Virus record (IMG/VR): IMGVR_UViG_3300046474_000019
DNA length: 64,000 bases
Source: an uncultured virus (IMG/VR IMGVR_UViG_3300046474_000019)
Lineage: Duplodnaviria > Heunggongvirae > Uroviricota > Caudoviricetes
Strand: one strand, 5' to 3'
Shown: in pieces, positions 1,880 to 50,049 of the stretch
Position numbering within the stretch: position 1 is the first letter of the stretch
Layout of the letters: every line of letters starts with the position of its first letter
Program-made: the position numbers and the translations under genes
Notes under the pieces: model-generated
Databases searched by the model: none
The model's input: only the letters and a program-made list of their open reading frames with translations
What the model was told of the DNA's origin: nothing

Positions 1880-1910
1880 AGGGTTCTCCTTATTGATTTG
1901 ATAATTCCTG

Positions 1911-1938
1911 ATAGTAACACAGTTTTCCTGATTGTCAA
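1911..1938 (-). promoter_or_regulatory. sigma70-like promoter (leftward)
   Basis: TTGACA-N16-TACTAT with extended TG on the minus strand. Confidence 0.75.
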
Positions 1939-1942
1939 GACC

Positions 1943-1971
1943 TTGACGTAGGGCAATTGCCGTGTTAGTAT
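1943..1971 (+). promoter_or_regulatory. sigma70-like promoter driving ncRNA copy A
   Basis: TTGACG-N17-TAGTAT with extended TG; back-to-back with the leftward promoter. Confidence 0.7.
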
Positions 1972-1977
1972 GGAAAA

Positions 1978-2296
1978 ACTGATGGAGAGATATGTCTGCG
2001 AAAGCACCACTCACCGGCCATCAGGAACACGCCTATGAAGAGAGTGCTACTGGGCAAGCTGAGTTCTAATCTGGTTAAAGCGTAGCGGTGACGCCGAAAG
2101 GTGGAATGACCAGAATCTGACAGAGCAATCTGTCTCCTGCCCATGCAGGCCAATCACGATCTCAAGCGTCATGAGGAAACTCATACGAGATAGTGTGGAA
2201 GATAGAACCTTAGGTACGTCTTAGGCAGATTTTCTGTATGGCGTTCCTTAGGGTAATTCTATCTTCCAATACGAAACTCAGCGTCATGAGCAGATC
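1978..2296 (+). ncRNA. unknown structured ncRNA, copy A (homolog at 36691-36978)
   Basis: Shared blocks (ATGTCTG, CACTCACCG, GGAACACG, CCTATGAAGAG, CGATCTCAA, CAATACGAAACTCA) and covarying helices with copy B; own promoter; no credible ORF. Confidence 0.75.
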
Positions 2297-2388
2297 AAAT
2301 ACAATAACTAACACATACAACCACCTAAACCACTGATACTAAAGGAGATTGTATGAAATAACCCTAAACAATATAAGGAAACCAAACT

Positions 2389-2583
2389 ATGAGATGCCGA
2401 TGCTGCGACGTACCGCTGATCAATAATGACAGCCCCGCATGGAATAAGCTCGCACAGAGAGAAGAAGACCTTTGTAGTGTGTGCAGAAATCTTGTATACA
2501 ATTCATATACAGAACGAGAGTATATCTGTGGACGATATCCGACTGACGGTGTGACAGGTCCAGTACCCATCAAAGAAAATTAA
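2389..2583 (+). CDS. small Zn-binding hypothetical protein
   Basis: CRCC and CSVC motifs; TAAGGA RBS. Confidence 0.7.
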   Translation: MRCRCCDVPLINNDSPAWNKLAQREEDLCSVCRNLVYNSYTEREYICGRYPTDGVTGPVPIKEN

Positions 2584-3058: not shown

Positions 3059-3133
3059 TGGACGGAAGCTAAGCGGTCAGGCATCGGACTTTTAATCCGA
3101 ACATGCTGGGTTCGATTCCCAGTCGTCCAACCA
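3059..3133 (+). tRNA. tRNA-Lys(UUU)
   Basis: Cloverleaf; TCGGA-CTTTTAA-TCCGA; GTTCGATTC; CCA end. Confidence 0.9.
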
Positions 3134-3138
3134 AATAT

Positions 3139-3226
3139 AGTAGATTGGCTGAGAGGCCGAAAGCAGCGGATTGCTAATCCGTAGGATGTAAAAGTCCCGT
3201 GAGTTCGAATCTCACATCTACTGCCA
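3139..3226 (+). tRNA. tRNA-Ser(GCU)
   Basis: GCGGA-TTGCTAA-TCCGT; long variable arm; GCCA end. Confidence 0.92.
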
Positions 3227-3351
3227 GAATGATCAAGTCGCTCTTGATAAGAAAACTGCATCGACGTGAGGGGTTCGCGGTCGGGTTGCACTCGGAATGT
3301 TGCGATAGTCCGGTAGGGGTATGAGTCCCAAGTAGAACCCTTTAAATTTAT

Positions 3352-3441
3352 AGCGGGTAGGCTTCATGGCGAAGAAGCAGTTTAGAAAACTGTCCCACTG
3401 GTTAGTAGCCGGTGAGGGTTCGATTCCTTTACCCGCTGCCA
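3352..3441 (+). tRNA. tRNA-Ser(AGA), A34
   Basis: AGCGGGT/ACCCGCT acceptor; GCAGT-TTAGAAA-ACTGT; long variable arm; G73-CCA. Confidence 0.75.
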
Positions 3442-3448
3442 AACAAAC

Positions 3449-3525
3449 GGGCCTTTGATGCAATTGGCAGTCGTGCTTCACTCAAAATGAAGATGTTCCC
3501 AGTTCGAATCTGGGAAGGCCCACCA
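3449..3525 (+). tRNA. tRNA-Leu(CAA), short variable loop
   Basis: GGGCCTT/AAGGCCC; CTTCA-CTCAAAA-TGAAG; ACCA. Confidence 0.85.
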
Positions 3526-3530
3526 AACAA

Positions 3531-3604
3531 GCTTCGTTCGTCTAATGGTAGGGCCGTTGCTTTACACGCAACAGACGGAGGTTCAATTCCTTCACGAAGC
3601 ACCA
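3531..3604 (+). tRNA. tRNA-Val(UAC)
   Basis: GTTGC-TTTACAC-GCAAC; ACCA. Confidence 0.9.
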
Positions 3605-3752
3605 AACATCACAAAGTAATCGCGTTAGGGTTCGATTCCCTCCCAAGCCTCGGCGGACACCTGAAAGGGTGTGGTTCACAAAGCGGATGAAACGTGACTA
3701 GAGAGCAACTGAAGGATGGCCATCTGGATGAAGCTCTCGGTACTAATTTAAT

Positions 3753-3829
3753 TGAGGGATGGCGGAACTGGTAGACGCGCTGGACTTTGAATCCAGCAAT
3801 TGTGGGTTCGACCCCCACTCCCTCTTCCA
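3753..3829 (+). tRNA. tRNA-Gln(UUG)
   Basis: CTGGA-CTTTGAA-TCCAG; CCA end. Confidence 0.88.
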
Positions 3830-4049
3830 AAATTTGAATGACTAGCCTTACCGCACGGCCTAAGCGTTTACTATTGTTGTGGAGATAAAATAGTAGAACG
3901 ACCAACGGAGGGGCAGTGTCCACTACTCGTAATCTTGAGTCATTCAAACCAAACATACCGCGCCTTGGTATGGACAATGTGATAACCAACATCACAAAGT
4001 CGTTGACGCTCAGGAGACAGCGTGTTATAAGTGTCTCCTACGAATTTAT

Positions 4050-4124
4050 GTCTGAGTCTGCTAACGGCAAGCTGCTGGCCTCCAAAGCCATGCGATCTGG
4101 GTTCGAATCCTAGCTCATTCGCCA
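4050..4124 (+). tRNA. tRNA-Trp(CCA), mismatched acceptor stem
   Basis: TGGC-CTCCAAA-GCCA; GTTCGAATC; GCCA end. Confidence 0.75.
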
Positions 4125-4129
4125 AATAT

Positions 4130-4206
4130 ATCCTCATAGCTCAACTGGACAGAGCAAGGGTCTTCTACACCCAAGGCTGAGGGTTCAAATCCTTCTGGGG
4201 ATACCA
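4130..4206 (+). tRNA. tRNA-Arg(UCU)
   Basis: GGGT-CTTCTAC-ACCC; ACCA. Confidence 0.9.
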
Positions 4207-4213
4207 AATAGGA

Positions 4214-4663
4214 GTGCAGATGATAGCTTGTGGATGCTGCGGTACGCAGACAAAGAATAAAAAGTATTGCAGCAAGTCTTGTTCTGCAACTGTGAACAAC
4301 CTTAAACCAAAGCGTGCAAGAAAACAGTGGTTCTGTGTTGATTGCAGCGTAGAGGTCACACATCGTAGGCAGTATTGCGATGATTGCGATCCAAGATGTA
4401 GAGGCGACATTACACTTGCAGAGGCTATCTACAAGAAGCACCACAGATCGTCTGCATTTGCCCTAGTAAGAACAAGAGCAAGGGTTGTAGTTAAAAACGA
4501 ACCAACAGTTTGTGAAGTATGCTCTTACGATAAACATATCGAAGTAGCCCACGTTAAAGGTGTCGCTGAGTTTTCAGAAGACACGCTGCTCAGTGTGATA
4601 AACGATAGAAGTAATTTAAGACTGCTATGCCCTAACTGTCACTGGGAGTTGGATAATTTATAA
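4214..4663 (+). CDS. HNH endonuclease inside the tRNA cluster
   Basis: CEVC...EVAH...NLRLLCPNCH; N-terminal Zn fingers (KYCSKSC). Confidence 0.85.
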   Translation: MQMIACGCCGTQTKNKKYCSKSCSATVNNLKPKRARKQWFCVDCSVEVTHRRQYCDDCDPRCRGDITLAEAIYKKHHRSSAFALVRTRARVVVKNEPTVCEVCSYDKHIEVAHVKGVAEFSEDTLLSVINDRSNLRLLCPNCHWELDNL

Positions 4664-4743
4664 AAGATTTTAAATAAACGCTTGACAGAATGTATTTGTC
4701 GTGTTTAAATACTCATATGAATCAGACATTAAAGGAGAAACAA

Positions 4744-4866
4744 ATGGCAAAGCCATATGATGCAACAAAAGAACACACTCCGGTTGACAAGACACGCTTG
4801 AAAGATAGTAAAGGCCGTCATCCGAATAAAGGACGTAAGGATAAGCATCCTACCTCCGGTAAATGA
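4744..4866 (+). CDS. 40-aa basic small protein
   Basis: AAGGAG RBS; MAKPYDATKEHTPVDKTRLKDSKGRHPNKGRKDKHPTSGK. Confidence 0.6.
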   Translation: MAKPYDATKEHTPVDKTRLKDSKGRHPNKGRKDKHPTSGK

Positions 4867-4872
4867 TTTATT

Positions 4873-4950
4873 GGGCGATTGAAGGGAATTGGTCTACCTT
4901 CCTGACTTAGAATCAGGAGCTTCTCGGTTCGAGTCCGAGGTCGCCTACCA
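4873..4950 (+). tRNA. tRNA-Leu(UAG), short variable loop
   Basis: CCTGA-CTTAGAA-TCAGG; ACCA. Confidence 0.85.
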
Positions 4951-4965
4951 ATTTAAAGTAACAAT

Positions 4966-5042
4966 GCTCTTGTCGTCTAAAGGTATAGGATTGCTGACTT
5001 TCAATCAGTTGATGTTGGGTTCGAGTCCCACCAAGAGTACCA
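4966..5042 (+). tRNA. tRNA-Glu(UUC)
   Basis: GCTGA-CTTTCAA-TCAGT; ACCA. Confidence 0.88.
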
Positions 5043-5046
5043 ATTT

Positions 5047-5121
5047 GGTCTTATCGTATAACGGTTATTATACTCGCCTGTCTAGCGAGGGAACGGAGTT
5101 CGATTCTCCGTAGGACCGCCA
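5047..5121 (+). tRNA. tRNA-Asp(GUC)
   Basis: CTCGC-CTGTCTA-GCGAG; GCCA. Confidence 0.9.
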
Positions 5122-5126
5122 AACAT

Positions 5127-5202
5127 GCTGGAGTACGCTAGTGGCCAAGTGACCACCTTTGTAACGTGGATGCCGTCAGTTCGAATCTGACCTTCAGCAC
5201 CA
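5127..5202 (+). tRNA. tRNA-Thr(UGU)
   Basis: CCAC...TTTGTAA...GTGG; GTTCGAATC; ACCA. Confidence 0.8.
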
Positions 5203-5208
5203 ATTAAT

Positions 5209-5283
5209 TCCCGTGTAGCTCAGCGGTAGAGCAACTGCTTGATAAGCGGTAGGTCGGTTGTTCAAGTCAACCCACGGGAACCA
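5209..5283 (+). tRNA. tRNA-Ile(GAU)
   Basis: ACTGC-TTGATAA-GCGGT; ACCA. Confidence 0.9.
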
Positions 5284-5376
5284 ACTTCGGGCTTTGCCCT
5301 TAGATGCCTCTCCAGACGACTGAGTTGGTCTGGGATATAGAGAAGGCTTGAAGGCGCTTACAACAAACTAATTTAA

Positions 5377-5453
5377 TGCGAGTTAGATATTCTGGAGAAT
5401 ACGCGGGCCTCATAAGCCTGATTAGGTGAGTTCGATCCTCACACTCGCAACCA
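5377..5453 (+). tRNA. tRNA-Met(CAU)
   Basis: CGGGC-CTCATAA-GCCTG; ACCA; Met, fMet or Ile2 identity not resolved. Confidence 0.85.
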
Positions 5454-5579
5454 AACATGTGCTCCCCGCGTGTACAGCCAGTTGAGTGTGCTGTATAAAT
5501 ATAGTCTCTATCAACGTAGTAGTCTACGGATGACCCGGATTGATGCGTCTGGATAAACGACTACAGCATCAAGAATAAT

Positions 5580-5657
5580 TGGTAGTGAGCCATCCGGGTG
5601 AGGGCACTTGACTGTTAATCAAGATGAAGAGTGGTTCGAGTCCACTACTACCAGCCA
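5580..5657 (+). tRNA. tRNA-Asn(GUU)
   Basis: CTTGA-CTGTTAA-TCAAG; GCCA. Confidence 0.9.
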
Positions 5658-5663
5658 AACAAA

Positions 5664-5752
5664 GCGTCGTGATTTATGGGGACTGGGATTCCCGCTGGGC
5701 TGTAAACCCGGTGTCCAAGACTGCGTGGTTCGATTCCGACCATGACGCACCA
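5664..5752 (+). tRNA. tRNA-Tyr(GUA), atypical
   Basis: CTGGG-CTGTAAA-CCCGG; extra nucleotides before the D arm; bulged T arm; ACCA. Confidence 0.65.
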
Positions 5753-5757
5753 AACAA

Positions 5758-5832
5758 CTCGGGGTATCTCAGAGGCAGAGAGCTGGTTTTGGAAACCAGA
5801 GGTCGAGATTTCGAAATTCTCCCCCGTGACCA
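5758..5832 (+). tRNA. tRNA-Pro(UGG)
   Basis: CTGGT-TTTGGAA-ACCAG; ACCA. Confidence 0.8.
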
Positions 5833-5934
5833 ATTTTGCTGTAAAGGATTGTGACAGCCCATGCTGCACGGTTCGTACCCTGTCCAATTAGTTGAAAGGC
5901 GAGACGGATAAGAAAGGGCAGCAAACGCGACAAT

Positions 5935-6008
5935 GGGCTGTAAGAATTTCGATAGTTCGCCTGCCTTGCACGTAGGAGGGGCCAGTTTGACTCTGGCACG
6001 GTCCACCA
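5935..6008 (+). tRNA. tRNA-Ala(UGC)
   Basis: CCTGC-CTTGCAC-GTAGG; G3:U70 present; ACCA. Confidence 0.85.
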
Positions 6009-6014
6009 AATTCC

Positions 6015-6087
6015 GCAGGTACGCACAAGGTGTGTCGCCGGCCTTCCAAGCCGTGTAGCAAGGGTTCGATTCCCTTTATCTGCTCCA
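6015..6087 (+). tRNA. tRNA-Gly(UCC)
   Basis: CGGC-CTTCCAA-GCCG; U73-CCA. Confidence 0.85.
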
Positions 6088-6092
6088 AACAA

Positions 6093-6166
6093 CGCCTGAT
6101 AGTTTAATATGGAAAACACCGTGGATAAGCTGCGGAAGTTGTGGTTCGATTCCACAAAGGCGACCA
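6093..6166 (+). tRNA. tRNA-like gene with non-canonical anticodon loop (pseudo-tRNA?)
   Basis: D arm, T arm (TGTGG-TTCGATT-CCACA) and ACCA present; loop GATAAGC lacks U33; acceptor stem imperfect. Confidence 0.6.
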
Positions 6167-6170
6167 ATTC

Positions 6171-6246
6171 GCATTCTAAGCTAACTAGGTAGAAGCACTG
6201 GATTGAAACCCCAGAGGATGAGGCTCGATACCTCAAGAATGCACCA
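6171..6246 (+). tRNA. tRNA-Phe(GAA)
   Basis: GCATTCT/AGAATGC; CTGG...TTGAAAC...CCAG; ACCA. Confidence 0.85.
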
Positions 6247-35311: not shown

Positions 35312-35449
35312 TCATTCGTCCTCTTCTGTATAAGGGCGCTGCCCCTCTTCAGTGCAAAGAGGGCAGAACGTCTCGCTGTAGAAAATCTCATGCTCATCGC
35401 ACAAGCTCTTTGGATTGCAACTCTCACAATCAACAACCATGCAACGCAT
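35312..35449 (-). CDS. 45-aa Cys-rich acidic protein
   Basis: MRCMVVDCESC...FCPLCTEE; TAATG overlap with the ligase stop. Confidence 0.6.
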   Translation of the reverse strand: MRCMVVDCESCNPKSLCDEHEIFYSETFCPLCTEEGQRPYTEEDE

Positions 35450-36591
35450 TATTCCTCCTTCAGCAAGTATGCATTGCTGATAACTTTGAACGAGAAGTCA
35501 CGTGTGGTGCTCTTGTAGACAAACCCTTCACGGAATTTACCTTTCAAACCGCTTGGCCCTTCAGCCCGAGTAAGCACTTCAGCAACTGTCGCAGCCTTCA
35601 GAGGGCCAGTGTAGTTAACTGGAACGTGCTTCACACCGTTGTCAGTGCAGAATTTGATTCGCTCAGCGGGCAACATGTAACGCTGCTCATCAATCAGGAA
35701 CACGTCGTAGCAGAAGAATGTGTTCTTGTCAACACCCTCGAAGTTCTTCTGGATAGAAGGCCCGCACATCTCACCTTGAATAGCAATGTTACGACCATCA
35801 CGACGAATTGCTTCGATCAAACCAGCTTCAGTCGCCATCTGTGTGAAAGCGTTGTCGTCTTTCTTGATTACACGCTGCCACTTCGCAGCACGTAGACCGC
35901 GAGAGCGCAGATGGCTAAAGAAAGTAATGGCCGTATCAACCAGCCCACGTTTCTCATCAGCCATACGGAAACCCACGTTACGGCTTGCCACGCCAGCCAC
36001 ACCGTTATTAACAAACGCAGTAAGAGAGCTTCCATCAAGTTTAAACGACTCCTCAAATTCTTCCCCGTCAGCAACAGCCTTAAGGTACATGTGTGTGATG
36101 TTTTGCACGCGGGTTTGGTCAGTCTTTGGCACAAACTTTGGGAAGCCCAGAGCAGTGCTGCCAGTCTTGACACCCATGCCACCAGTGTTATTCATGCTCG
36201 ACTCTTCAGCTTTCTCGTATTTGACGACGCCGAGAGCTTTTGTGACATCATCGCCAACGGCTGCCTTAATACCAGTCTCAGACAACGGCACACAGAAACC
36301 CTGAGACAGTTGCTTACGCAGCTTCATGGTCTTGATACGTGCATGTGTGCGGCCATCCACTACGTGGAGCAGCTTGCTCGACAGTGTTGCCAGAGAGTTG
36401 AAGTATGGCCGCTCAGTATCAAGCAGGGAGTCCACTTCAAAGTATACGGCTGGTGTAACACCCACCTCGTACAAACCTTTCTGCACAACCACTTGCCAGC
36501 CGCCAACGAGGGCAAGCTCAATACGGTCAGCACCTTCGATTGGCAACAGTTGGTCGATCAGGACGACACGGGCCAGAGAACGTTCGCTCAT
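35449..36591 (-). CDS. RNA ligase (DRB0094/Rnl2-like)
   Basis: IEGADRIE, PKTDQTRVQN, KLDGSS, QGEMCGPSIQKN, REGFV, SFKVISN. Confidence 0.9.
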   Translation of the reverse strand: MSERSLARVVLIDQLLPIEGADRIELALVGGWQVVVQKGLYEVGVTPAVYFEVDSLLDTERPYFNSLATLSSKLLHVVDGRTHARIKTMKLRKQLSQGFCVPLSETGIKAAVGDDVTKALGVVKYEKAEESSMNNTGGMGVKTGSTALGFPKFVPKTDQTRVQNITHMYLKAVADGEEFEESFKLDGSSLTAFVNNGVAGVASRNVGFRMADEKRGLVDTAITFFSHLRSRGLRAAKWQRVIKKDDNAFTQMATEAGLIEAIRRDGRNIAIQGEMCGPSIQKNFEGVDKNTFFCYDVFLIDEQRYMLPAERIKFCTDNGVKHVPVNYTGPLKAATVAEVLTRAEGPSGLKGKFREGFVYKSTTRDFSFKVISNAYLLKEE

Positions 36592-36624
36592 TTTTAAAAC
36601 TCCTTTGTGTGTTTGAGGTGGCAG

Positions 36625-36656: not shown

Positions 36657-36684
36657 TTGACAGAAGAAGTTTCCATGCTACTAT
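36657..36684 (+). promoter_or_regulatory. sigma70-like promoter driving ncRNA copy B
   Basis: TTGACA-N16-TACTAT with extended TG. Confidence 0.75.
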
Positions 36685-36690
36685 TCATCA

Positions 36691-36978
36691 CGTCGCAAGG
36701 GAGACATGTCTGAAAACACTCACCGACTTGCGGGAACACGCCCTATGAAGAGGTAAGCTGTTGGGGCTGCTGAGGTTGAATGAGAGAACAGTACAGCGAT
36801 GACCCGCAAGGGGAAGGCTCTCAATCTATAGTGTCCCATGACACCGGCTTGCGATCTCAATTTTGGATAGCATAGGATAAACCTCAAGGCATGTCGAGGC
36901 GGTTAACTCCGTATGGCAAGCCTTGGGATAGGTTTATCTCGACAATACGAAACTCATTTTGGATAGGAGCAAGATATG
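36691..36978 (+). ncRNA. unknown structured ncRNA, copy B (homolog of 1978-2296)
   Basis: Conserved blocks and compensatory helices relative to copy A. Confidence 0.75.
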
Positions 36979-37386
36979 TGCCAAGTGACAGAACACATCA
37001 ATAACTGGCCCAAGTATAAAGCTGAACGGGACGCTCTCAAGGAGTCGAGAGATTGTGTCGTGGTGTCCTTCTGCGAGATTTGGGGAGCACCTTATCGTGA
37101 TGCCCACACGCATATAAAGAAGATGTTTGGACGTAAGAACCGCCGTGGGACAGATACAGATAAGTGCAGAGATGCCATTGCTCGCTGCCCAAAGACAAAG
37201 ATGGCTAAGCGCGAATGGGAAGTTGCTGAACGTCCAACCCTCAAGAAGTTTTGCGAAATGCATCCAAAAGGTAAATACTGGGTGTTTGTTAGTAAACATG
37301 CCCTTGCAGTGATAGACGGAGTTGTGTATGATCACACCCACGGTCTTCGCCGTAAGGTCAAATTCGCTTTCAGGGTATATGTGTGA
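36976..37386 (+). CDS. putative papain-like Cys peptidase
   Basis: DCVV...HPKGKY...HALAVIDGVVYD gives a Cys-His-Asp arrangement (inferred). Confidence 0.5.
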   Translation: MCQVTEHINNWPKYKAERDALKESRDCVVVSFCEIWGAPYRDAHTHIKKMFGRKNRRGTDTDKCRDAIARCPKTKMAKREWEVAERPTLKKFCEMHPKGKYWVFVSKHALAVIDGVVYDHTHGLRRKVKFAFRVYV

Positions 37387-37595: not shown

Positions 37596-37786
37596 ACAAC
37601 GAACTGATGGCGGCATTTAAGGCTCTGCGTGTTAGCGAGCGTACATGTGTGTTGCAAGATTTGGGATACAACATGCATCCAGCGGTTCATGAGACAGGCA
37701 GTGAGTTTGCCCTGCGAGTCTTGCGTCAAGTGTCAAGTGATGGTATTGTGCGGCAACTGGAAACTGCTATGCTGAGGTTTCAGTGA
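37592..37786 (+). CDS. hypothetical protein
   Basis: ATGA overlap; GGAG RBS. Confidence 0.6.
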   Translation: MNNELMAAFKALRVSERTCVLQDLGYNMHPAVHETGSEFALRVLRQVSSDGIVRQLETAMLRFQ

Positions 37787-38292
37787 GGGCCAGAGCGTCC
37801 AGCCTGACTGAACAAGAGTCTTCCGAAATCCATAAAAGGTTTTGGAGTAAGGTAGACAAGTCAGGTGATTGTTGGGTGTGGACATCAAACTCTATTAAAA
37901 ATAGAGGACTGTTCAAGGTCTTTGGTGATAACATCTACGCACCGAGAGTATCCTACGCAATGGAGTGTGGCGAGATTCCAGAGGGGATTTCGGTATGCCA
38001 TACGTGCGATAATCCAGCTTGTGTGAAGCCTGAGCACCTATTCCTCGGCACTGACGCAGATAATTCAAAGGATAGAAACGAGAAAGGTAGGCAAGCAAAG
38101 GGTGAAAAATCTGGTAGAGCAGTTCTCACTGAGAAAGACGTTTTACTAATCAGGGAGAAGATTTACCTTGATTGGCCCTTGACAGACATCTCTAAATTAG
38201 GTTACAGTTACACATCTGTTGTAGACATTAAACGAGGAAAGTCTTGGGCACACGTCCCAAACCCTTTCGCTATTCTGAACAACGCGATTTAA
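37783..38292 (+). CDS. HNH endonuclease
   Basis: RFWSKVDK..DCWVW, VCHTCDNPACVKPEHLFLGT. Confidence 0.9.
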   Translation: MRARASSLTEQESSEIHKRFWSKVDKSGDCWVWTSNSIKNRGLFKVFGDNIYAPRVSYAMECGEIPEGISVCHTCDNPACVKPEHLFLGTDADNSKDRNEKGRQAKGEKSGRAVLTEKDVLLIREKIYLDWPLTDISKLGYSYTSVVDIKRGKSWAHVPNPFAILNNAI

Positions 38293-39716: not shown

Positions 39717-40322
39717 ATGAAACTCATTAGAGGTGTTGGCATTAAGGATGTTAAGGTTGCAAGCGATTGTCCTTTCTATATCAAGTGGAAGAATATGATT
39801 GACAGGTCGTATGGCCCAAAAACCGGAAGGAATAAAACTTACACAGAATGCTCTGTATGTGAAGAGTGGTTGATATTCTCCAACTTCAAAGCTTGGATGG
39901 AAGCTCAAGATTGGAAGGGTAAAGATTTAGACAAAGACTGGCTTGTCCGTGGCAGCACTACCTACTCACCCGAGACTTGTATGTTCGTAACGCCAGAACA
40001 CAACAAGCTTCTAACAGGTTCTGAGTCTACTCGGGGAATCTATCCAATAGGGGTGAGTTACAGACAGAAAGCACCTAGTATGGTTAATGAGCTTAAGCGT
40101 CCGTATAGAGCTTGTATCTGTATTGACGGAGAGTTTGTAAGCCTTGGGTCTTTCTCCACTCCAGAGGCTGCTCACGCATTGTGGCAGATTACAAAGATGC
40201 AGGTGTTAAAGCGTGAGTTTGAGAAGGAAGGTCTTGACACAAGACTGAAAGGTGCTATGATGACCCGTTACGAGCTGCTGCTCAATGATCTAGCCAGCGA
40301 AAGGGAGACAGAGTTTTTATGA
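39717..40322 (+). CDS. HNH-like homing endonuclease (LDKD/YSPETC family)
   Basis: VCEEWLIFSNFKAW, LDKDWL, YSPETC. Confidence 0.75.
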   Translation: MKLIRGVGIKDVKVASDCPFYIKWKNMIDRSYGPKTGRNKTYTECSVCEEWLIFSNFKAWMEAQDWKGKDLDKDWLVRGSTTYSPETCMFVTPEHNKLLTGSESTRGIYPIGVSYRQKAPSMVNELKRPYRACICIDGEFVSLGSFSTPEAAHALWQITKMQVLKREFEKEGLDTRLKGAMMTRYELLLNDLASERETEFL

Positions 40323-48006: not shown

Positions 48007-49041
48007 ATGAGCGAGGACATTCTAGTATTTGACGCAGACAGCATTGCATACAAAGCAGCGGCGGCAAACGAAGAAAAGAGTATCAAAACACAGCATATCG
48101 AAAAGGGTGTGATCGAACAGTGGAGCAACCGCACAGAGTTCAGAGCCTATCTGGCTGGCACTGACCACACTGAGGATATGTACACCATCACTGACGTACA
48201 AGACCCGCGACACTCCAGTTATGGTAAGAGCCTTATTCGCGATATGATCAAAGGCTACCACACTCGCACTGGTGTCACCAAAGGTGAGATTTACATCGGC
48301 GGTGAGAACAACTTCCGTGACCTGATTCCTTTACCAATGACTCACGTTGCAACAGTTGGTAAGTGGGCGGGTAAGAGTAAACTCGGCGGGAAATACAAAG
48401 AGAACCGTGAAGACACCATTCGCCCTTTGCAGTTGAAGGAGCTACGTGCGTATCTGATTGGTGAGTTGAAAGCTGGCATTGTCAATGGTATGGAAGTTGA
48501 CGACAAACAGTCCATGCGTTCGTATGAAGGCTTTAAGACTGATACTCGTATCATCACTGTAACAGAAGACAAAGATGCACTGGGTTGTTCTGGCTGGCTT
48601 TGGAACCCTGCGAAGATGATCAAACCTGTCCTGATTAAAGGCTTTGGTGAGCTGCACAAGGAAGGGAAAGGCATTAAGGGTACTGGCAGGCTGTGGTTGT
48701 ATTACCAAGCGCTCTACGGTGATTCTGTGGACAACTATCATGGTTGTGATTTGTGGAAGATTGCACAGGATAAAGCAGGCAAGAGTGTGACGTTTGGCGA
48801 AGTCGCAGCGTACAACATCCTCAAAGACGCGAAGAACGACAAAGAGGCTGTAACCGCTGTATACAACCAATTCAAACTCTGGTATCCTGAGTCTGTTATC
48901 TACATGGATCACATGGGCCAGATGCAGAACAAGAACGCTGTTGAAATCATGCAGATGTATTTTGATGCAGCCCATATGCGTAGATTCGAGGATGACAGAA
49001 TCATTGTCAGGGATTTGCTTGACCGTCTGGGGATTGTCTAA
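48007..49041 (+). CDS. 5'-3' exonuclease (T7 gp6-like)
   Basis: FDADSIAY, NFRD, YKENR, EVDD, EDKD, GDSVDNYHG. Confidence 0.85.
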   Translation: MSEDILVFDADSIAYKAAAANEEKSIKTQHIEKGVIEQWSNRTEFRAYLAGTDHTEDMYTITDVQDPRHSSYGKSLIRDMIKGYHTRTGVTKGEIYIGGENNFRDLIPLPMTHVATVGKWAGKSKLGGKYKENREDTIRPLQLKELRAYLIGELKAGIVNGMEVDDKQSMRSYEGFKTDTRIITVTEDKDALGCSGWLWNPAKMIKPVLIKGFGELHKEGKGIKGTGRLWLYYQALYGDSVDNYHGCDLWKIAQDKAGKSVTFGEVAAYNILKDAKNDKEAVTAVYNQFKLWYPESVIYMDHMGQMQNKNAVEIMQMYFDAAHMRRFEDDRIIVRDLLDRLGIV

Positions 49042-49508
49042 TGAACTGGGCGGAAGCTAGCCAACTATTTTCGTATGACCCGGAAACGGGTCTTGTTATC
49101 AGGAAGGTATCTGGTGTTGAGGTTGGAAGTGAGACTTCGGATGGATACCTCTCTGTTTACAGGAAAGGTAAGAACTATAAGTTGCACAGAGTGGCTTGGT
49201 TGTTAACGTATGGAGACTGGCCGGAAGAGTTTATCGACCACATCAATGGTGATAGGCAAGACAATAGACTACAAAATCTGAGGCTTGCTGATAACTCTGA
49301 AAACTTAATGAACTGTGTTGTGTACTCAAACAACAAGAGTGGTGTGAAGGGGGTTTGCTGGGATTCTAAAAGATCAAAGTGGCGTGTAACACTGACCACT
49401 GGTAAGAAGACCGAACATCTTGGCTACCTAATATCACTTGAAGACGCCAAAGCATTGATAGAGTTCCATAGACAATTAAAGCATGGGGAGTACACAAATC
49501 ATGGTTGA
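49041..49508 (+). CDS. HNH homing endonuclease with AP2-like C-terminus
   Basis: YDPETG, HRVAW, IDHINGDRQDNRLQNLR, SGVKGV. Confidence 0.9.
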   Translation: MNWAEASQLFSYDPETGLVIRKVSGVEVGSETSDGYLSVYRKGKNYKLHRVAWLLTYGDWPEEFIDHINGDRQDNRLQNLRLADNSENLMNCVVYSNNKSGVKGVCWDSKRSKWRVTLTTGKKTEHLGYLISLEDAKALIEFHRQLKHGEYTNHG

Positions 49509-50049
49509 GCCGTGGATCGAATATCCCCACATTTGGAAGACTGAGGCAATGTATCTTAGCTGGATTCGTGGCGGAATCCGGCGATACCTCTGGAGTAAGA
49601 ACCCAGTGAAGCTTGAGTTTGTCAAGTCTGCTCGCAAGATGATTGTTAATCCTAACGTGAAGCTACGCAAAGGTCGTCCTAAAGTTTGGGGCGGGGTTTG
49701 TGAGATTTGCCAGAAAGAATTCATCATGAAGAATATGGAAGTGGACCACAAAACTGGTGAACATTCCCTCAGAAAGACTGAGGACATTCAAAAGTTTGTC
49801 GAAGGGATTGTGTTCGTTCGAAAGGAAGACCTCGCACTTCTGTGCAAACCATGCCATAAAATAAAAACGTTAGCTGAACGAAGCGGGCTTACACTTGGTG
49901 AAGCTTCTATAGAAAAAGAAGCTATTCTCATTTGCAAAGGTAGTGCAAATGATGTTAAACTGTGGCTAACTGAAGCTGGTATAGCTCCAGCTCGCACCGT
50001 AAAAGAGCGTAGAGCACAAGTCACGGAGGTTCTTCGTGGCAAAGTGTAA
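49501..50049 (+). CDS. HNH endonuclease
   Basis: CEIC...MEVDH...LLCKPCHKIKT. Confidence 0.8.
   Translation: MVEPWIEYPHIWKTEAMYLSWIRGGIRRYLWSKNPVKLEFVKSARKMIVNPNVKLRKGRPKVWGGVCEICQKEFIMKNMEVDHKTGEHSLRKTEDIQKFVEGIVFVRKEDLALLCKPCHKIKTLAERSGLTLGEASIEKEAILICKGSANDVKLWLTEAGIAPARTVKERRAQVTEVLRGKV

Follow-up and report, generated by a model that had tools for sequence, protein, structure and literature searches.

What do two homologous, non-coding stretches, 35 kb apart in the DNA of an uncultured virus of the Caudoviricetes (IMG/VR IMGVR_UViG_3300046474_000019), do for the phage that carries them? The window, that is, the whole stretch of 64,000 nucleotides that was analyzed, holds one of them at 1978-2296 (copy A) and the other at 36691-36978 (copy B). 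An initial annotation had described them as two copies of a structured RNA in which a constant scaffold presents a copy-specific 10-mer twice, and had proposed a guide-like role, with an origin-priming RNA as the alternative. The two homologous stretches and the motifs, helices, and 10-mer coordinates quoted for them all proved correct, and the picture of a constant scaffold with a variable segment in a two-copy structured RNA was borne out by the fold and by the repeat statistics. The function that we favor is a different one. With a probability of roughly one in three (0.35), each copy would be a cis-acting, promoter-proximal leader of one long rightward transcription unit.

The window belongs to the genome of a virulent Pseudomonas myophage in the Otagovirus / Flaumdravirus / Pakpunavirus group. 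P. aeruginosa is among the hosts of these virulent Pseudomonas phages, as is P. syringae pv. actinidiae, a pathogen of kiwifruit. Identity to phiPsa374-type phages is 83% for copy A, and identity to PPSC2 is 92% for copy B; one IMG/VR contig is 100% identical to the window across copy A. The two copies are paralogues with a mean column identity of 75% in the alignment. Copy A matched 184 phage records (183 Pseudomonas phages and one Pectobacterium phage), and at least 80% of the query was covered in 145 of them. The family is also present in IMG/VR and in metagenomes: the core pattern GAGAGAYATGTC-N3-25-CTCACCG retrieved 45 IMG/VR loci, nearly all of them homologues, and 42 of 119 metagenome loci were nhmmer matches at an E-value of 1e-5 or better. 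Among 89 pattern matches in 596 Gb of bacterial and archaeal genomes, two were full-length homologues, and both sit on contigs of ~35 kb in metagenome bins; the family therefore appears, from its sequence distribution, to be restricted to phages. An nhmmer profile of the family found two copies in each of eight phage sources (the window, phiPsa374, VCM, REC, PE09, KIL1, JG004, and UAVern) and no further copy in the other 53 kb of the complete KIL1 genome. The whole record of Nankokuvirus PAK_P3 gave no match to the RNA family. The homologue set comprised 69 unique, nhmmer-verified, full-length copies pooled from all sources.

At gathering thresholds, Rfam 15 gave 16 matches in the window, all of them tRNA and none at copy A or B, in agreement with the first impression that the family could not be recognized. 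Under permissive E-values, the two loci gave four and two weak matches, which scored 13 to 22 bits against cut-offs of 36 to 80 and were thus far below threshold; the best was MIR3444 (21.5 bits, cut-off 80), and the C/D-box models scored 13 to 18 bits against cut-offs of 36 to 46. These C/D-box-like matches fall in the pseudoknotted core, where they were triggered by CCUAUGAAGAG ... CUGAG, motifs that may form a kink-turn. With all scores below the gathering cut-offs, the RNA is uncatalogued in Rfam 15. An RNA of this family was not found in the literature searched, the supplements of the bioRxiv PAK_P3 ONT-cappable-seq study excepted. The PAK_P3 sRNA1/ncRNA1 and the 5'UTR RNA upstream of gp49, as described in PMC4933390 and bioRxiv 10.1101/2023.10.13.562163, are different RNAs, and their stretches contain no family motifs. 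The supplement on PAK_P4 has sRNA1 at 91948-92050 as its sole listing, and the homologue in this phage, at 89177-89430, is unannotated.

The promoters and the parts of the two copies are as follows, in window coordinates.

1943..1971, plus strand: sigma-70-like promoter of copy A, TTGACG-17-TAGTAT, with a TG-extended -10 box.
1938-1911, minus strand: partner promoter, back to back with the copy A promoter (promoter scan).
1978..2296, plus strand: putative leader RNA, copy A (nhmmer match 1972-2290).
1979..2024, plus strand: P1 of copy A (1979-1985 with 2018-2024), in which six of seven pairs change on both sides and paired cells make up 96.8%; the invariant GAGAGAUAUGUC ... CACUCACCG core and a variable hairpin lie inside it.
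2031..2113, plus strand: pseudoknotted core of copy A, with the conserved UAUGAAGAG and GCUGAG.
2031-2034 with 2052-2055, plus strand: P2 of copy A.
2046-2050 (GCUAC) with 2082-2086 (GUAGC), plus strand: pseudoknot of copy A; all five pairs change on both sides.
2071-2075 with 2109-2113, plus strand: P3 of copy A, enclosing a GNRA hairpin; all five pairs change on both sides.
2136..2149, plus strand: hairpin P5 of copy A, CCUGC-CCAU-GCAGG; all five pairs change on both sides.
2150..2175, plus strand: S1 of copy A, the first copy of the twinned tail, consisting of CCAAUCACGAUCUCA and R1 AGCGUCAUGAG (2165-2175).
2177..2194, plus strand: extra partial tail unit of copy A, AAACTCA-TACGAGATAG, found in one of the 69 homologues.
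2196..2268, plus strand: long irregular hairpin P6 of copy A (P6a-d), with several positions nearly fixed as G-U, a conserved internal loop UUAGGC / GUAUGG, and the invariant GG of CCUUAGGG.
2266..2290, plus strand: S2 of copy A, the second copy of the tail, consisting of CCAAUACGAAACUCA and R2 (A)GCGUCAUGAG (2280-2290).
36657..36684, plus strand: sigma-70-like promoter of copy B, TTGACA-16-TACTAT.
36652-36625, minus strand: partner promoter, back to back with the copy B promoter (promoter scan).
36691..36978, plus strand: putative leader RNA, copy B (nhmmer match 36689-36966).
36694-36699 with 36727-36732, plus strand: P1 of copy B.
36860..36870, plus strand: R1 of copy B, ATTTTGGATAG.
36875-36938, plus strand: P6 of copy B.
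36956..36966, plus strand: R2 of copy B, ATTTTGGATAG, which abuts the start signals of the first replication-block gene, the Shine-Dalgarno sequence GGAG and the ATG at 36976.

From 5' to 3', the RNA consists of a pseudoknotted 5' domain, hairpin P5, tail S1, hairpin P6, and tail S2. RNAalifold recovered P1, P2, P3, and P5 from 41 diverse copies with many compensatory changes, and a manual model of 71 pairs in 13 helices adds the four-part hairpin P6 and the pseudoknot, which joins the P2 loop to a segment within P3. In this model, 81.6% of cells were paired, compared with 63.3% after shuffling and 39 to 42% when the partners were slid. The covariation score was 0.434 against 0.161 for shuffled alignments, with none of 500 shuffles as high, and the helices whose sequences differ between the copies do keep their pairing, being compensated in both the alignment and the fold model. 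Three positions are G-U in 30 to 32 of the 41 sequences, where the opposite strand would give C-A; this fixation indicates that the fold is selected as plus-strand RNA and not as a DNA cruciform. The 13-helix pseudoknotted fold is well supported. Single-sequence folding was uninformative for the tails, which were not predicted to be especially open (unpaired 0.41 for S1 and 0.47 for S2, compared with 0.45 for the 5' domain).

The duplicated 10-mer is GCGTCATGAG in copy A (2166-2175 and 2281-2290) and TTTTGGATAG in copy B (36861-36870 and 36957-36966). The best direct repeat in the 3' part of the RNA scored at least 8 in 61 of the 69 homologues but in only 6.7% of 345 shuffles, and the remaining eight homologues have weaker repeats, mostly at the corresponding place. 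The repeat stands on either side of P6, with a spacing of 93 to 115 nt in the main clade and 68 to 91 nt in the divergent clade. There are 42 distinct repeat sequences, so that the segment does vary between homologues while staying duplicated within each, as the initial annotation had asked. Close relatives carry single changes that are shared by both repeats (e.g., AGCG / AGTG / AGCT-TCATGAG), and a CUCA prefix becomes CUGA in both tails together. The claim of a 10-mer that is identical twice holds for the duplication of the variable segment but needs correction in its extent and exactness: the repeated unit is really ~27 to 32 nt, comprising the single-stranded tail that comes after a hairpin (P5-S1 and P6-S2), and its identity is not always perfect, with 12 mismatches in 35 unique R1/R2 pairs. 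Both hairpins end in CC; P5 is followed by CCAAUCACGAUCUCA and R, and P6 by CCAAUACGAAACUCA and R. S1 and S2 are identical at a mean of 22.9 of 32 positions, compared with 16.9 for control segments, and differ outside R by small indels and a 5-nt patch. Mutual information showed that R2 columns covary with R1 columns only, through identity and not through complementarity. The RNA contains an internal direct repeat whose identity is held while its sequence drifts.

The mismatches have a direction. Ten of the 12 have G in R1 and A in R2, and the reverse was never found; if R1 RNA pairs with a strand complementary to R2, no other direction would be tolerated, because rG can pair with dT or U. The asymmetry may reflect, as an equally simple cause, mere selection for an unstructured ribosome-binding region, because the whole S2 tail is depleted of G (163 changes from G to another base and 17 from another base to G). 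Copy A of the window phage is the only one of the 69 homologues with a third tail unit, at 2177-2194 right after R1; aligned to the S2 unit of PE09-type phages with a single 2-nt gap, this unit is identical at 17 of 17 bases, and its sequence has the look of a recombination or template-switching footprint. Several other roles for the tail were considered and rejected. A hairpin of the CUCA prefix with UGAG in R was seen by eye in many A-type copies but is absent from copies of the B-type and divergent kinds; the CUCA-to-CUGA change in both tails, which is uncompensated, contradicts a pairing between that prefix and GCUGAG. For a small ORF starting from AUG within R, the repeats are not consistently spaced by a multiple of 3, and reading frames are unconserved; inspection by eye for mimicry of a tRNA primer-binding site or anticodon gave no consistent match.

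We also searched for a partner of the variable segment. Inside the RNA, no column was complementary to R2 over at least 6 bp (G-U allowed) in more than 26% of sequences. Six phage loci and the window, seven stretches of 34 to 64 kb in all, contained no complement of at least 8 nt that recurred at a consistent place; the search of the 64-kb window by itself also gave none, nor did that of the whole 90.5-kb KIL1 genome with up to three mismatches in 14 to 16 nt. In these genomes, the template DNA strand of S2 was the sole complement found, which would make it the pairing partner of S1. A scan of 40 window ORFs gave no reverse transcriptase or RNA-dependent polymerase and no RNA polymerase domain. 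A never-ending ORF like that of DRT2/Neo was rejected, as the length of 21 of 36 repeat units is not divisible by 3 and these units give no stop-free concatemer frame. A joint that skips the hairpin was absent from contigs of one RNA and three DNA metagenome runs across window positions 1900-2420, contigs being a form of data that can miss rare forms. The RNA-library contigs, from one metatranscriptome of a relative, span the element, its promoter, and the next ORF and may be DNA. In one DNA metagenome (run X5), contigs break at R1 and R2 (window 2146-2273) and two alternative short contigs of 115 and 127 nt span the hairpin, which suggests co-existing strains that differ in the P6 region.

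Each window copy begins 7 nt after the end of a strong sigma-70-like promoter, as had been noted, and in 47 of the 69 homologues a promoter-like site ends 13 to 17 nt before the GAGAGA motif of the conserved core. A divergent partner promoter is present in 50 of the 69, and the element is missing from the leftward operons that start there. Gene orientation diverges at each of the two copies. The window gene layout matches that of KIL1, in which the copies head the only two rightward gene blocks, ~35 kb each.

0-14.4 kb of KIL1, minus strand: leftward genes.
14.4-49 kb of KIL1, plus strand: copy A, then tRNAs and virion genes.
Between ~49 kb of KIL1 and copy B, minus strand: short leftward islet with an RNA ligase gene.
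50.7-89.4 kb of KIL1, plus strand: copy B, then replication and nucleotide-metabolism genes.

Copy B heads the block with the primase-helicase and DNA polymerase genes. The first downstream genes vary among A-type, B-type, and divergent copies, being a Cys-rich 64-aa ORF and tRNAs, replication genes, or helicase-like genes; they have PHROGs of unknown function and no Pfam match. These differences indicate that the element is operon-general and not gene-specific. No nuclease, recombinase, or reverse transcriptase gene is consistently adjacent to the copies. A Shine-Dalgarno sequence and a start codon lie within 40 nt past R2 in 24 of the 69 copies. There is no terminator-like site after copy A, and the single one near copy B is upstream of it. 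Promoter-like sites on the minus strand, which are consensus matches only, were absent over copy A and present at R2 (36956-36984) and just after R1 (36869-36897) of copy B; the reverse complement of the copy B repeat contains CAAAAT, and antisense transcription across the copy B tail is possible on this basis.

The surroundings of the copies have further features of their own. R2 of copy A is followed by a G-poor, CA-rich tract with A-R-N-like triplets (2291-2362), which may be likened to a Rho-utilisation site or to an Hfq distal-face site, and then by a strong Shine-Dalgarno sequence with a two-codon mini-ORF (ATG AAA TAA). The first ORF past copy A (2389-2583, plus strand) encodes a conserved Cys-rich protein of 62 to 66 aa (MRCKCCD..., PHROG 10364), possibly a zinc ribbon, and follows A-type copies in many phages. 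Next, at 3059-6243, immediately behind copy A with its two small ORFs, come 16 tRNA genes (Rfam), which precede the virion genes. The divergent leftward unit beside copy B contains an RNA ligase gene (35449-36592, minus strand; Pfam RNA_ligase and a PHA02142 OB-fold domain), which is also found beside copy B in VCM, REC, KIL1, JG004, and UAVern but not at that place in phiPsa374 or PE09. HNH-type homing endonuclease genes are scattered in the replication block on the plus strand (37783-38292, 39717-40322, 49041-49508, and 49483-50049), as they are in the KIL phages.

How might such an RNA work as a leader in cis? Host RNA polymerase with sigma-70 would transcribe it, and it would fold from the first transcribed bases. 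It would act on its own transcription unit and not as a diffusible guide, readying the elongating polymerase or the transcript for a journey of 35 kb, much as HK022 putL/putR do. Pairing of the upstream tail with the complement of the downstream one would be the simplest way to account for the required identity of the tails, which would be kept since S1 RNA must match the complement of S2. S1 would pair with the S2 template strand just behind the polymerase, like the upstream G-run of ColE1 RNA II, and this pairing would keep an R-loop open or tether the folded RNA to its own locus. The outcome would lie among antitermination, control of the translation of the first gene, and priming of DNA synthesis. 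A more specific form, in which the RNA clamps itself to its own gene by a programmable RNA-DNA match of 10 to 30 nt, with selection acting on tail identity, and so licenses 35-kb transcription or starts replication at two sites, is an idea that we put forward tentatively and with the odds well against it.

A leader in cis is favored by the two copies in each of the eight phage sources, the promoter just upstream, the placement at the operon head, and the operon-general nature of the downstream genes. Pairing between S1 and the complement of S2 is favored by the repeat kept in 61 of the 69 homologues, the covariation by identity only, the absence of a complement in cis and in the phage genomes searched, and the G/A asymmetry. 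Against a leader in cis, this RNA is four times longer than put and shares no sequence or fold with it, the leftward operons of the partner promoters do without the element, and PAK_P3 manages without it altogether. Against a hybrid, the indels and the 5-nt patch between S1 and S2 outside R would interrupt pairing. An RNA that is large, conserved, and promoter-proximal and that heads both blocks is an obvious candidate for the missing control element. We found no catalogued precedent for selection on the identity of two internal RNA segments, and such identity-only selection suggests a step in which strands are exchanged, either with DNA or with a nascent copy.

The same evidence bears on three other readings in which the RNA acts at or near its own locus or on the host machinery. 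As a pre-primer for two transcription-activated replication origins, like those of T4 oriF/oriG and the ColE1 RNA II case, it would use S1 to nucleate a persistent R-loop over S2 and the DNA beyond it, and the transcript would prime the leading strand. Covariation by identity with its G(R1)/A(R2) asymmetry, the position of both copies where gene orientation diverges, the primase-helicase and DNA polymerase block behind copy B, and the AT-rich, G-poor stretch after R2 of copy A are all consistent with this. G-poor RNA is a poor R-loop former, R2 of copy B runs straight into a ribosome-binding site and an ORF, and the elaborate 5' pseudoknot domain would be left unexplained, so we consider an origin doubtful. 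An operator for translation or RNA stability, bound by a protein and with the tails as twin sites for a dimeric factor, would agree with the CC-ending hairpin before each tail, with the start signals close behind R2 in 24 of the 69 copies, and with the paucity of G in S2, which is a trait of translation-initiation regions. Its tail identity would be maintained by gene conversion of the 27-32-bp repeats, and the foreign unit at 2177-2194 points to recombination at such units. However, even the positions that can vary freely are the same in both copies, a match that a protein site does not need, and the tails of A and B differ within one phage; furthermore, 27 to 32 bp is very short for sustained conversion, and neither the 69 homologues nor the metagenome contigs contain a natural deletion or duplication product. 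We therefore judge such an operator unlikely. The strong TG-extended promoter, the fold from +1, the CA-rich A-R-N-like tract after copy A, and the large conserved 5' domain with many invariant bases would also suit a non-coding RNA that is made early, stands alone, and acts by sequestering or remodeling RNA polymerase, Hfq, a nuclease, or another host factor. This is distinctly less probable, considering that a terminator-like site is absent after copy A and lies upstream at copy B, that the element is always at an operon head and often abuts the ribosome-binding site of the first gene, and that each genome has two diverged paralogues at fixed places.

The two remaining readings make direct use of the duplicated segment. 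The guide role proposed by the initial annotation, in which a trans-acting RNA pairs host or phage nucleic acid through two identical guides, drew on a variable segment that is duplicated on a constant scaffold and covaries, and the kink-turn-like resemblance to C/D boxes with its weak Rfam matches points in the same direction. It fared poorly: no complement was found in the RNA, the window, the seven phage stretches, or the whole KIL1 genome (phage sequences in each case), the segment differs among phages that share a host species, no conserved effector gene is consistently adjacent, and the Rfam matches are those far below cut-off described above. We regard it as very unlikely, and the origin-priming alternative raised alongside it, as well as a template or strand-transfer role, fits the identity-only covariation better. 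As a template for a strand-switching polymerase, the RNA would let the nascent copy of R2 jump the hairpin to R1 or circle the unit as in DRT2. The identity of 10 to 16 nt on either side of a hairpin that brings the copies together and the direction of the G/A asymmetry, which fits annealing of an R2 copy to R1, would suit such a jump. But the polymerase that it needs is missing from the 40 window ORFs, the 21 of 36 units without an open frame make a DRT2/Neo-like product unlikely, and the contigs of three DNA runs and one RNA run hold no cross-hairpin joint; we give this reading hardly any weight.

Among known systems, box C/D, bridge, and TIGR RNAs resemble the phage RNA in having a scaffold with a pair of short variable segments. 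The two guides of these RNAs are unlike each other and have known targets, whereas the segments of the phage RNA are identical and no target was found; where guide RNAs have a conserved adjacent effector, the neighboring ORFs here differ between the copies and between clades. Retroviral R, hepadnaviral DR1/DR2, coronaviral TRS, and the ACA motifs of the DRT2 non-coding RNA are short direct repeats conserved for identity, and all of these signals serve an RNA-templated polymerase. No such polymerase was found among the ORFs scanned in the phage, unlike in these systems, and the open-frame test for a DRT2-like product failed; a DRT2-type template would come with both an associated reverse transcriptase and a stop-free concatemer. 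Lambda nut and the rrn boxA-boxB combine a promoter-proximal hairpin with a single-stranded box, with two sites per phage. CGAUCUCAA of the phage leader resembles lambda boxA, CGCUCUUAA, at seven of nine positions, which is within chance for an RNA of 300 nt; the divergent clade has GGCUCC there, and no N-like gene was identified, both unlike lambda nut.

The closest likeness in placement is to HK022 put. According to PMC9378689, put occurs in two copies after PL and PR, requires no protein factor, and is an RNA of ~70 nt with two stem-loops that causes processive antitermination in cis. Like putL/putR, the phage copies are a related pair, each just past an early host-type promoter that heads a long operon, and have no dedicated protein gene beside them. 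The phage RNA differs from the ~70-nt put RNA in its length of ~290 to 320 nt, its 13 helices and pseudoknot, and its twinned tail. Put suppresses terminators in cis by binding the beta' zinc-binding domain of RNA polymerase, and the likeness of the phage RNA to it is one of placement. For the tail, the likeness is to ColE1 RNA II, which forms a hybrid with template DNA, as stated in PMC11012335. Both are long folded transcripts in which an upstream segment is thought to pair with downstream template DNA. In RNA II, an upstream G-run is said to pair with a C-run of the template, reportedly from work of Masukata and Tomizawa in 1990; this is a short contact, unlike the duplicated variable segment of 10 to 30 nt in the phage leader. 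RNA II also has an antisense RNA I; an RNA I-like gene is not known for the phage leader, and the minus-strand promoter-like consensus matches overlap copy B but not copy A. An upstream segment complementary to the template, as in the RNA II contact, is present in the phage RNA, where S1/R1 equals S2/R2 in 61 of the 69 homologues.
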